63,673 nucleotides of DNA, filler included, from Reclinomonas americana ATCC 50394 (GCA_048213135.1; 7 parts of 4 records of this genome joined end to end with filler, not necessarily neighbours in it), one strand, 5' to 3'. Numbered from the whole stretch's first letter, positions 6,449 through 62,567 are shown. The notes: a model not told the origin generated them from the sequence alone. A program made the numbers and translations.

Positions 6449-9400
6449 ATGTCGTCCTCGGCTGTGCTCTCTCGCATCATGCGCCGAGTGTCTGCCTCTC
6501 GTGCCACTATCGTGATGCCAGTGCTTCTCCTGCTGCTGACAGTCGGTGAGTGTGGCTGGGGTGAGACATTTCCGCTTCCTCCCACTCGCACACACCACTC
6601 TCGCTGGCTTCTCTCTCTCTCATACCTCCCCCATCCTTCTCCTTGGCTCCTTCTTTCGTGCATTGTGTCGCGCACGTGCACGCTGCGACGACCATGAGTG
6701 AGTGTGCAACTTTTCCCTTTTTCGCGTCATTGCGTCAGTCGCGCCCTTTGCGCATTGCGAACAAGGTTGCACATACCAGGAGAGGGGCAGTGGTGGAGCT
6801 TGCATGCACCTCCCCCGTATTGCNNNNNNNNNNNNNNNNNNNNNNNNNNNNNNNNNNNNNNNNNNNNNNNNNNNNNNNNNNNNNNNNNNNNNNNNNNNNN
6901 NNNNNNNNNNNNNNNNNNNNNNNNNNNNNNNNNNNNNNNNNNNNNNNNNNNNNNNNNNNNNNNNNNNNNNNNNNNNNNNNNNNNNNNNNNNNNNNNNNNN
7001 NNNNNNNNNNNNNNNNNNNNNNNNNNNNNNNNNNNNNNNNNNNNNNNNNNNNNNNNNNNNNNNNNNNNNNNNNNNNNNNNNNNNNNNNNNNNNNNNNNNN
7101 NNNNNNNNNNNNNNNNNNNNNNNNNNNNNNNNNNNNNNNNNNNNNNNNNNNNNNNNNNNNNNNNNNNNNNNNNNNNNNNNNNNNNNNNNNNNNNNNNNNN
7201 NNNNNNNNNNNNNNNNNNNNNNNNNNNNNNNNNNNNNNNNNNNNNNNNNNNNNNNNNNNNNNNNNNNNNNNNNNNNNNNNNNNNNNNNNNNNNNNNNNNN
7301 NNNNNNNNNNNNNNNNNNNNNNNNNGTGGCGAATTTCGCAGGCACCATCATGCTGTGTTGGGAGAGTGGGGGTGACCGTGAGCGTGAGTGAGTGGAAAAT
7401 CAATCATGTCCCTTTTTGATCTTTTTTCAACCGTTGCACAATGTGCAAGATTCGCGTGTTTTCTTGCTGCACATGCATGATTCGTATGTTTTCGCGCGCT
7501 CTGTCACTTCAATTTCGTTCTCGCCGCTGTCCCTCCCTCCCTCGCCTCCCTCTGCTTCTGTGGTGGTGTGTTTCCTCTCTGCTCGTTCGTCACGCTGTGT
7601 TGCTGGCTGCGTGCATTTTTCACTAAATGAGAAAACAAATACAGGAATTCTTCTCTGCGGAGCTGTCGGCGCAGTGACTGTGACCACCAGCAGTGCCTCG
7701 TCCATCACTCCCGTCTCCGCTGTGCTGAATGCCAGCGTGGACAACAGCGGTGGTGCCAGTGAGTTGCCGAATTGGATCCAGTTTGCCACCGACTCCTCGG
7801 CCTTTGAGGCCTCTGTGAGTTACTACGCCGGCAGCAACGGATACGGCAGCAGCGACGGTCCGCTTCTTTCTGCACAGTTCGCGTTCCCCACTGTTGCGTG
7901 GCGCAGCAAGCAGCACTCAGTTGCCTTGCATCACACAAAACCAACTTACAATTCGGAATTTTCTTTCCTCTCCACACAAACGCACACACACGCACAGGCC
8001 GTCACGTCTGACAAGGCCGGCAACCTCTACGTCCTCGAGAATGCGTGCGTAGCCACTGTCGCCACCACCACCATCCTTCTGTCTCTCCTCCCACCTCACC
8101 CTCCCATTCCCAACAGTTTCTTCCGCATCCGCAAAGTGGGTGTGGCCGACGGACAGGTCACCCGCATCACTGGCGGTGTCGGCAGCAACATGAGCATGTC
8201 GAATGCCCCCATTGATGGCGGCCCTGACACGGCGACATTCTACGGGTTTGTTACCAGTCGTCACTCCGTCTGCGACATGCATGAGCTCATGTGTGTTGTG
8301 TCGTGACTGTGCAGGGCGGTGCAGCTTGCCGTGGACGAGGCCGACGGCCAGCCCAGCTCCATTTTCGTTGACACAGGTGACGCGCGTGTCCCTCCTCTCT
8401 CTCTCTCTCTCTCGTTGTTGCGTTGTTCTCACTCGCTCCTCGATGACGCGACAGCCGAATTGCATTCGCCGCGTCAACCTCAGCGACAGCATGACGACCA
8501 CGTTGGCTGGCACATTCCAAGACAGCACCACCGACTCTCCGAGCACTCGCTTCTCGTCGCCTTACGGCATTGCTGTGGACTCTGCCACCGGCACTCTCTA
8601 CGTTGCCGAGAACGGCGCTCACATCATTCGGTGTGTGTGAGCACGCCCGCAAGAATCACATCTCCCCACGACTGACACGCCGCTGCTGCTGCTGCTTCTC
8701 CCTTGCCTCTTTCCCCCCTCTGCAGTGAACTCAAGCGCGACGGCTCTGGCGTGGCGGTCACGTGCGGCTCTCGTGGCAACGAAGGCGTTGTTGATGGTGC
8801 TTGCGCCTCCGCTGCGCGTTTCTCCCGGCCCACTACTGTTGCCCTCGATTCCACCAACCATATCCTCTACGTTGTGTCTTCGAACACCAACTGCGTTGTC
8901 AAGATCGATCTCGTCGCCAAGACGTTGTCGCATCTGACTGGACAGTGCAACAATTACTATCTGGACTCGGTGGAGGAGAAGACCAACGATATCATGGGCT
9001 CCTTCCGTTCCATCCAGGGCATTGCCTTGCACCCGAAACTCGACTTCCTGTACGCCACCGATGTTGCGCACCGTGTCGCTGGCTGGCTCTCTCCCTCCGA
9101 TTATGGCAAGCTCTGCTCACGCGTACGCCGCGGTTGTGTTTGCATGCAGATTGGCTACCCCACCCTGTGGTCGATCAATGTGGCCTCCGGTGCCACGGGC
9201 AGTCACGGCGGCAATGGAGGTGGTGGCGTTATTCGGAATGGTGCACTGTCGAGTGTTTACTATGGCTACCTGGTGCGTTCTGCAAGCAGTGAGAGCATCG
9301 CCGCTCTCCTCGTCATCTCTCACGCGTGTGATGTCACTGGTGCAGTCCGGAATCACCTTCACCGATCAGTACACGGCCTTCTTTACCGGTATGCTTTTTG

Positions 9401-61945: not shown

Positions 61946-62567
61946 GAGTCTCGTCGCCACCTGGTCAACCAGCACTTCCGCAAGATCTCCATGGTGATGG
62001 ATTGCGTCGGGTGCGAAAAGTGCCGCATGTGGTCCAAGCTGCAGACACTCGGCATCGCCACCGCCCTCAAGATCATGATGTCCGACACGCCGCTGGCGTT
62101 GGTCAACATGGAGCGCAACGAGATCATTGTTGCGTGCCTCCCCTCCGTCACCTCTGTTGACCCGTTTGCTGACACGCACGTGCGTGCGCACAGGCGCTGG
62201 TGAACACGGCGCAACACTGGGGCGAGTCCATCGAGGCAATTCGCGAGATGCGCGAAATGCAATGGATGGTATCGTCGTTCGGGCGCTTGTGTGGGCATCA
62301 CAACAACACTCCTGATTCATTCTCTCCCTCTTGCAGGCCACCGTGTCGTCCACCGTCTCGGTGGCTGCCGTCGGTCTCCTCGCGCTCACGGCGTTGTACA
62401 TGACGGTGCTGTGCCTGCGGACGCTACGAAAGAGTCGTCCCGCCGCCGCCGCCGCCTCGTCGGCGACTGCCTCGAGGTCGTCACCCTCCATCAATGGCAG
62501 CGGCAGCGGCGCCTCTGCCACTGTCAACGGCACGGTTGCCGAGTCAGAAGACGCCAAGACCAAATAA
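61946..62567 (+). CDS. ERO1: ER oxidoreductin 1, 3' part, with a C-terminal hydrophobic helix
   Basis: [34 protein letters not shown] (CxxCxxC motif) and ERNEII|ALVNT; stop TAA. Confidence 0.93.

Follow-up and report, generated by a model that had tools for sequence, protein, structure and literature searches.

GTTGCG 5' splice sites after exons not ending in G: a frequent donor class in a Reclinomonas americana window that may be read in a second register

How is a 5' splice site recognized after an exon with a final base other than G, in an intron that has no G at position +5? The question is raised by a window of 63,673 nucleotides (the whole stretch of DNA analysed, filler included) from Reclinomonas americana ATCC 50394 (GCA_048213135.1), in which an earlier note had listed 33 donors of the form H//GTT(G/A)(C/A)G (H, any base but G; the double slash marks the exon-intron boundary). 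The motif was present at all 33 positions, as GTTGCG at 29 of them, the figure previously given, GTTGAG at 3 and GTTACG at 1; as had been claimed, none of the 33 had G at -1. One further site, A//GTTGCGC at 58073, was found. The class accounted for 24-28% of the introns in the window, in agreement with the earlier estimate of roughly a quarter. At the level of sequence there is good support for a class that is both real and frequent; the position of the cut at 10 junctions and the link to the last exon base may be regarded as demonstrated. The mechanism, comprising the U1 arm, the register and a U6 step, is what we infer, with the help of computed pairing energies.

The window consists of seven pieces of eukaryotic sequence, rich in GC and dense in introns, with linkers between them, and all counts of the class rest on gene models and protein homology. 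A donor-blind finder, in which the donor was scored as GT only, was written against circularity. When genes were left out of training one at a time, it placed 28 of 37 introns exactly (9/15, 15/16 and 4/6 by gene) and recovered six of eight class donors; a run with 161 introns included the TRM1, RAD54-like and HD-domain genes in its composition training. A second finder, with a donor model built from the intron side alone and no exon base, gave 139 automatic introns. Dropping 28 of these and adding 12 gave a curated set of 123; the 28 were judged spurious or misplaced and were mostly non-class introns after bases other than G, so that the purity of the curated set is an upper bound. Hand models of the TRM1, RAD54-like SNF2 and HD-domain genes were free of stop codons throughout and used eight class donors.

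The class never followed an exon-final G. In the curated set it occupied none of 84 donors after G and 34 of 39 after other bases, and the dependence was also found with the donor-blind finder (0/72 and 25/89; P = 7e-8), with the finder using the intron side only (0/77 and 33/62; P = 4e-15) and in the hand models (0/27 and 8/10; P = 1e-6). Base use by codon position predicted 10.0 G-ending exons among the 34 class sites, and none was seen (P = 6e-6, or 5e-5 once six paralogous repeats were dropped). All five non-G exceptions of the curated set were perfect GTG(C/A)GT donors, a form that the earlier note had claimed for most of them. The word also followed the coding strand: in 39,426 gene bases, H-GTTGCGT occurred 28 times in sense and once in antisense, and G-GTTGCG 0 times in sense and 6 times in antisense. 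Modelled donors accounted for 24 of the 28 sense copies, the other 4 lying elsewhere. At 27213 and 691 (minus strand), 45326 (minus) and 8417 (plus), the sense strand has a perfect T//GTTGCGT outside the modelled donors, and these words are possible cryptic or alternative donors. A separate observation concerns phase-0 class donors with synonymous exon ends, which had T at 10 of 17 sites and C at 3 of 17 despite C-dominated third codon positions; five of the T-ending sites are paralogous copies.

Apart from the donor, class introns resemble the other introns in length, acceptor and branch-like word. Median lengths were 73 and 71 nucleotides, respectively, the acceptors of the 31 complete class introns were CAG (24) or TAG (7), and 30 of 32 carried a branch-point-like CT(C/G)A close to the 3' end. 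The class introns have the U2-type features, namely a GT start, a YAG end, a branch-like word and a length in the usual range. The earlier statement that the class is not U12-type was upheld: the U12 donor RTATCC was found at 0 of 123 introns and the branch point CCTTRAY in 1 of 31 class introns. As far as motifs can indicate, this supports use of the major rather than the U12 splicing pathway.

The position of the cut was examined by scoring each frame-keeping GT, GC or +1 start against each AG up to 30 bases away. Ordinary TRM1 junctions, used as a control, ranked first at 10 of 10. Against outside homologues, the class junction came first at four of seven sites, in one case (TRM1, 34745) by only 0.9 bit over the next option; the other three sit in variable regions. 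Paralogues within a large receptor-like gene with four repeat modules provided a further comparison. Three of its intron positions (7893/9916/11842/14023, 8246/10228/12174/14334 and 10366/12299/14471) hold G//GT donors in some copies and class donors in others, in the same phase, and six class junctions of this gene all ranked first against G-ending paralogues. At 10 junctions, one of them by a narrow margin, homology thus supports cutting just before GTT. Because paralogous introns differ in class at fixed positions, the class interconverts with ordinary donors together with the last exon base.

For the pairing energies, the sequence of the standard U1 5' end was taken from PMC4856993. Ordinary donors reached -7.2 kcal/mol, whereas class donors gave 0 in the canonical register and a mean of -1.1 kcal/mol in the shifted one, which was the better register at 19 of 34 class sites. 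Stable shifted pairing with the standard end is a feature that the class lacks, and standard U1 in the shifted register was rejected as the reader. The difference between -1.1 and -7.2 kcal/mol implies that either the arm of U1 must be changed or something else must read these sites. A register with bulged +2/+3 was likewise rejected, since it would favor G at -1 (seen at 0 of 34 sites) and was weaker than the shift at the real sites. The earlier note had proposed shifted-register recognition with intron G+1 standing in for the missing exonic G, by analogy with human sites. The +1 shift itself fits best, as 118 of the 123 curated introns have a G facing U1 C9 in either the canonical or the shifted register; the human analogy fails at the standard U1 end. 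As at human shifted donors, the consensus lies one base into the intron and the cut precedes GU. A at -1, with which U10 would pair after the shift, was mildly enriched in the class (14 sites and 8.0 expected; P = 0.012).

When 64 U1 arms with nucleotides 5, 6 and 8 varied were scored on all 123 donors, the two best carried G5 and kept C8. Shifted pairing of the class was then predicted at -5.1 kcal/mol with G5 and -6.8 kcal/mol with G5 plus C6, and pairing of G-ending donors at -8.2 to -8.7 kcal/mol with these two arms. Such energies predict a U1 arm; they do not show one. None of six weak Rfam matches in the window was a small nuclear RNA gene.

Our best explanation, to which we give an even chance, is that a G5-type U1 arm reads the donors of these introns, which are GT-AG introns of the major spliceosome, in a second register. 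A single recognition word, G-(G/T)-T-G-(C>A)-G-T, would be read by a U1 5' arm with G5 and possibly also C6. An exon-final G would pair with U1 C9 in the canonical register, leaving +3 and +4 free to drift. After any other exon end, intron G+1 would take C9 and the word would move one base inward; the rest of the word, TG(C/A)GT, would then need near-perfection, giving H//GTTGCGT. The cut would stay before GU in both registers. At the hand-over from U1, the U6 ACAGA box would most likely also pair one base inward, with +6G and +7U, one U being looped out. Pairing of U6 with the class seems feasible only with this shift, since +5G occurs at 0 of 34 sites and +6G at 34 of 34 (+6G with +7T at 28 of 34).

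Several observations are in keeping with this scheme. The class prefers C to A within the word (31:3 at +5), and the non-G exceptions have the same preference (4:1 at +4), which speaks for one word specificity in both registers. G5 predicts a +4 position rich in C or T and poor in G, which suits the ordinary G-ending donors (55/84 and 2/84). After an exon G the canonical register may suffice and the word decay: +6G was present in 5 of 10 G-ending donors without +5G and in 2 of the 74 others (P = 1.5e-4), and the +6G register seems to be tolerated generally. The five former donors, at 14334, 19362 and 62269 (plus) and 27538 and 38146 (minus), are possibly decayed or bulged shifted forms.

Other points weigh against the scheme. 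U1 C8 leaves U+2 mismatched, so that H//GTGCGT is predicted to be stronger than the class (-8.6 and -6.8 kcal/mol), yet there are 34 class sites and 5 of that kind. A at +4 in 27 of 84 ordinary donors suits the standard arm better. G//GTTGCG was modelled at -8 to -10 kcal/mol in the bulge register and is thus not forbidden by U1 pairing alone, yet it is absent. The energies were computed without pseudouridine or proteins, with an arm fitted to the same donors, and three of the seven junctions compared with outside homologues gave no clear rank. For human shifted sites, the text of PMC4856993 does not assume a matching shift of U6.

An alternative is a second donor code within the major spliceosome, in which about a quarter of introns have their GUUGCGU read by a dedicated variant U1, U6 being shifted by one base as well, and introns switch codes with the last exon base; we consider this possible but put it forward tentatively. 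The existence of two U1 small nuclear RNAs, a standard or G5-type one for G//GT and a dedicated A8 (or G8) variant pairing perfectly with shifted GUUGCGU, is in our judgment somewhat unlikely. An A8 arm would be class-specific (-9.4 to -11.1 kcal/mol, and only -2 to -3 kcal/mol for ordinary donors), and it would account for the rigidity of the class as well as for its 34-to-5 excess over H//GTGCGT. It leaves unexplained the absence of G at -1, where G would wobble with U10, and the preference for C over A common to the non-G exceptions suggests one reader.

Exclusion of G at -1 lies beyond the reach of U1 energies in general, and this is one argument for a second alternative, in which U1 does not discriminate and the class is set at the hand-over by an altered U6 ACAGA box, U5 loop 1, or Prp8, SNRNP27K or Luc7 proteins. 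The known U5- and U6-based classes are defined, as described in PMC11732430, by exon-side G and +5G, both of which the class lacks, and donor choice in STAT3 is, according to the text of PMC11162779, not decided by U1 position. However, the rigid word from +3 to +7 extends beyond the contact with U6, and each of its bases has its counterpart in the shifted U1 arm; we regard this alternative as distinctly improbable.

Miscalled junctions, with a real cut at the in-frame GC three bases on (GC+3), a TT start after G or an extra T due to sequencing error, appear very improbable, although the junctions are known here from gene models and homology, GC+3 is within 0.1-2.7 bits at 21419, 21613 and 34745, and one GC or GG start is probable near 8376-8382. 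The GC+3 cut was rejected because it scored lower by 5.8-6.3 bits at three conserved junctions (TRM1 36234, HD 21759 and ERO1 62129) and by 7-12.5 alignment points at the six paralogue-controlled junctions, and four class members have no in-frame GC at this position. The TT start was rejected as well, as it would leave the mRNA unchanged only where the next exon starts with G, at 8 of 32 sites. A sequencing error would not follow strand, donor position and last exon base, and class donors are present in five of the seven pieces.

The remaining proposal, that the class is the footprint of an introner (intron-creating transposon) family with a GTTGCG end, would explain a rigid terminal word in many introns, which such bursts leave behind, but is scarcely credible and largely refuted. 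Paralogues switch class at one ancestral position, and two class introns have bodies no more similar than those of introns from different classes (median local score, 14 and 13; P = 0.39). Terminal inverted repeats are lacking, and 23 of 31 class introns have no duplication at the junction.

The class introns, the exceptions and the genes that carry them are listed in Table 1. The predicted large membrane protein has a signal-like start, further repeated domains, one transmembrane stretch, a low-complexity tail and about 45 introns, and its gene seems to run on across the first linker (15479). Its intron at 8367-8454 (plus) has no in-frame G//GT donor; paralogues place the cut at 8376 (GG start), and the alternatives are a GC start at 8382 (C//GCGCGT), a GT start (8367 or 8388) and an assembly error of a single base. 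The HD-domain hydrolase resembles bacterial proteins such as SE1688 and BH2835, yet has six spliceosomal introns. TRM1 has a best homologue with 51% identity. In word-index protein searches the ERO1 exon found 17 homologues, all of them from other organisms, whereas no significant match was obtained with individual exons of TRM1 and RAD54; a metagenome scan gave one bacterial SNF2 locus only. Two convergent small HMG-box genes lie at 43540-44000 (plus) and 44320-45635 (minus), the latter with a Pfam HMG_box match and the former recognized by eye only. At 53699-53701 (plus) there may be a microexon of three nucleotides followed by a donor A//GTTCCGT at 53702. It would split a 143-nucleotide intron into 72 and 68 nucleotides, typical sizes, each with a branch-like word, and the frame is kept with or without it.

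Table 1. Donor class, exceptions, genes and linkers in the window (rank, place of the class junction among those scored; GC+3, score of the in-frame GC three bases on, relative to the class junction; frame, reading frame)
Feature	Position	Strand	Support or remark
T//GTTGCGT, repeat gene site a	7893..7997	+	rank 1/12 against G-ending paralogues
T//GTTGCGC, repeat gene site f	9063..9149	+	compared with class copies only
A//GTTGCGT, repeat gene site c	10228..10304	+	rank 1/3
T//GTTGCGT, repeat gene site d	10366..10433	+	rank 1/16
T//GTTGCGT, repeat gene site f	11090..11167	+	compared with class copies only
C//GTTGCGT, repeat gene site c	12174..12237	+	rank 1/9
T//GTTGCGT, repeat gene site d	12299..12366	+	rank 1/9
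C//GTTGCGT, repeat gene site f	12953..13019	+	compared with class copies only
A//GTTGCGT, repeat gene site a	14023..14100	+	rank 1/8
T//GTTGCGC	15178..15245	+	frame, donor-blind finder
A//GTTGAGT	19057..19138	+	frame, donor-blind finder
A//GTTGCGT, HD-domain gene	21419..21504	+	frame; homology rank 7/34, uninformative
A//GTTGCGT, HD-domain gene	21613..21682	+	frame; homology rank 5/23, uninformative
T//GTTGCGT, conserved motif of HD-domain gene	21759..21824	+	rank 1/12; GC+3 -6.3 bits
A//GTTGAGT	31579..31654	-	frame, finders
C//GTTGCGT	31927..32007	-	frame, finder
C//GTTGCGT, TRM1	34663..34745	-	rank 1/10 by 0.9 bit only
C//GTTGCGT, TRM1	36171..36234	-	rank 1/12; GC+3 -5.8 bits
A//GTTGCGT, TRM1	36602..36656	-	frame; variable region, rank 13/27
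C//GTTGCGT, RAD54-like SNF2	39646..39723	-	frame; donor-blind recovery, gene left out of training
A//GTTGCGG, RAD54-like SNF2	40099..40163	-	frame; donor-blind recovery
T//GTTGCGT, donor, intron across assembly gap	41017..41023	-	sequence only
C//GTTGCGT	41148..41225	-	frame, finders
A//GTTGCGC	41448..41516	-	frame, finders
C//GTTGCGT	42460..42520	-	frame, finder
C//GTTGAGT, donor, HMG-box gene, acceptor in gap	45185..45191	-	sequence only
A//GTTGCGT	49317..49386	-	frame, finders
A//GTTGCGT	52971..53114	+	frame, finder
A//GTTACGT	53627..53698	+	acceptor 53698 with microexon, or 53769
C//GTTGCGT	54918..55321	+	acceptor picked by hand
A//GTTGCGC	56250..56323	+	frame, finders
T//GTTGCGT	56641..56722	+	frame, finders
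A//GTTGCGC, new	58073..58149	+	frame, finders
T//GTTGCGT, ERO1	62129..62193	+	rank 1/5; GC+3 -5.9 bits; 16/17 homologues gap-free
C//GTGCGT, non-G exception	8045..8116	+	curated set
C//GTGAGT, non-G exception	14148	+	curated set
T//GTGCGT, non-G exception	17871	+	curated set
T//GTGCGT, non-G exception	35168	-	curated set; homology rank 1/18
C//GTGCGT, non-G exception	40800	-	curated set
Predicted large membrane protein gene	7647..20985 or 6479-20985	+	four NHL-type repeat modules with common intron positions
HD-domain hydrolase gene	21108..22311	+	6 introns, 3 class
TRM1 tRNA dimethyltransferase gene	34327..37084	-	15 introns, 3 class; 569 residues
RAD54-like SNF2 gene	37229..40860	-	16 introns, 2 class; 5' part lost to gap
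ERO1 gene, 3' part	61946..62567	+	
Six linkers (100 bases N plus 12-base stop spacer)	15479, 25379, 29697, 49820, 58586, 61744		

Frequent donors known so far lean on an exon-final G or on +5G. The class has neither and yet occupies about a quarter of the introns, which points to a routine second U1/U6 register or to a second U1. Shifted reading of the intron start, rare in humans, looks routine here, and the window offers natural substrates, including paralogous pairs of differing class at one position, for studying what determines the cut site when GU and U1 pairing disagree. The class also bears on how the register survives the hand-over from U1 to U6, and gene finders trained on +5G donors would miscall its exons. 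In the literature searched, no GTTGCG donor class and no jakobid donor logo is described, although figures, supplements and subscription journals could hold one; the texts of PMC1201135 and PMC7050145 give jakobid intron sizes and GT-AG ends without a donor consensus.

Rare human donors are read by U1 in a shifted register (PMC4856993; PMC9311317). The +1 shifted sites of Roca and Krainer (2009), as related in PMC4856993 and PMC11162779, resemble the class in the cut at GU, the consensus one base inward and U at +3. They pair with standard U1, as described in PMC4856993, whereas the GTTGCG word does not. The validated human bulge and loop registers together are estimated at about 1.5% of donors (PMC4856993), whereas one word accounts here for about a quarter of introns, with a tie to non-G exon ends that is absolute in this window. 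In a tunicate study, a shifted register is raised merely as a possibility in the text of PMC13326754.

Coevolved U1 arms are reported for Entamoeba (ACAAAC with GUUUGU) and for Mastigamoeba balamuthi (ACGUAC with GUGCGC), the latter being a G5-type U1 candidate beside its donors (bioRxiv 10.1101/2022.06.08.495308). As presented there, these Archamoebae donors likewise have C or U at +4 with a predicted changed U1 arm, and the Mastigamoeba arm fits the donors of the window well. They form one donor class in the canonical register, whereas in the window the last exon base would decide which of two registers is used. For U6, a noncanonical register displaced by one base is proposed at the STAT3 tandem donor (PMC11162779). 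That displacement concerns one site and is directed upstream (+4/+5), whereas the displacement suggested for the class would be downstream (+6/+7) and at many sites. Two major donor classes, AG//GU and //GURAG, are distinguished by Parker, Fica and Simpson 2025 (PMC11732430). As set out in that text, their system likewise has two frequent classes in which exon end and intron start compensate for each other, but the known intron-side class relies on +5G, which none of the 34 class donors has, their G being at +6. The class in R. americana works like the human shifted sites, lacks their pairing with standard U1, and fits neither of the known major donor classes.

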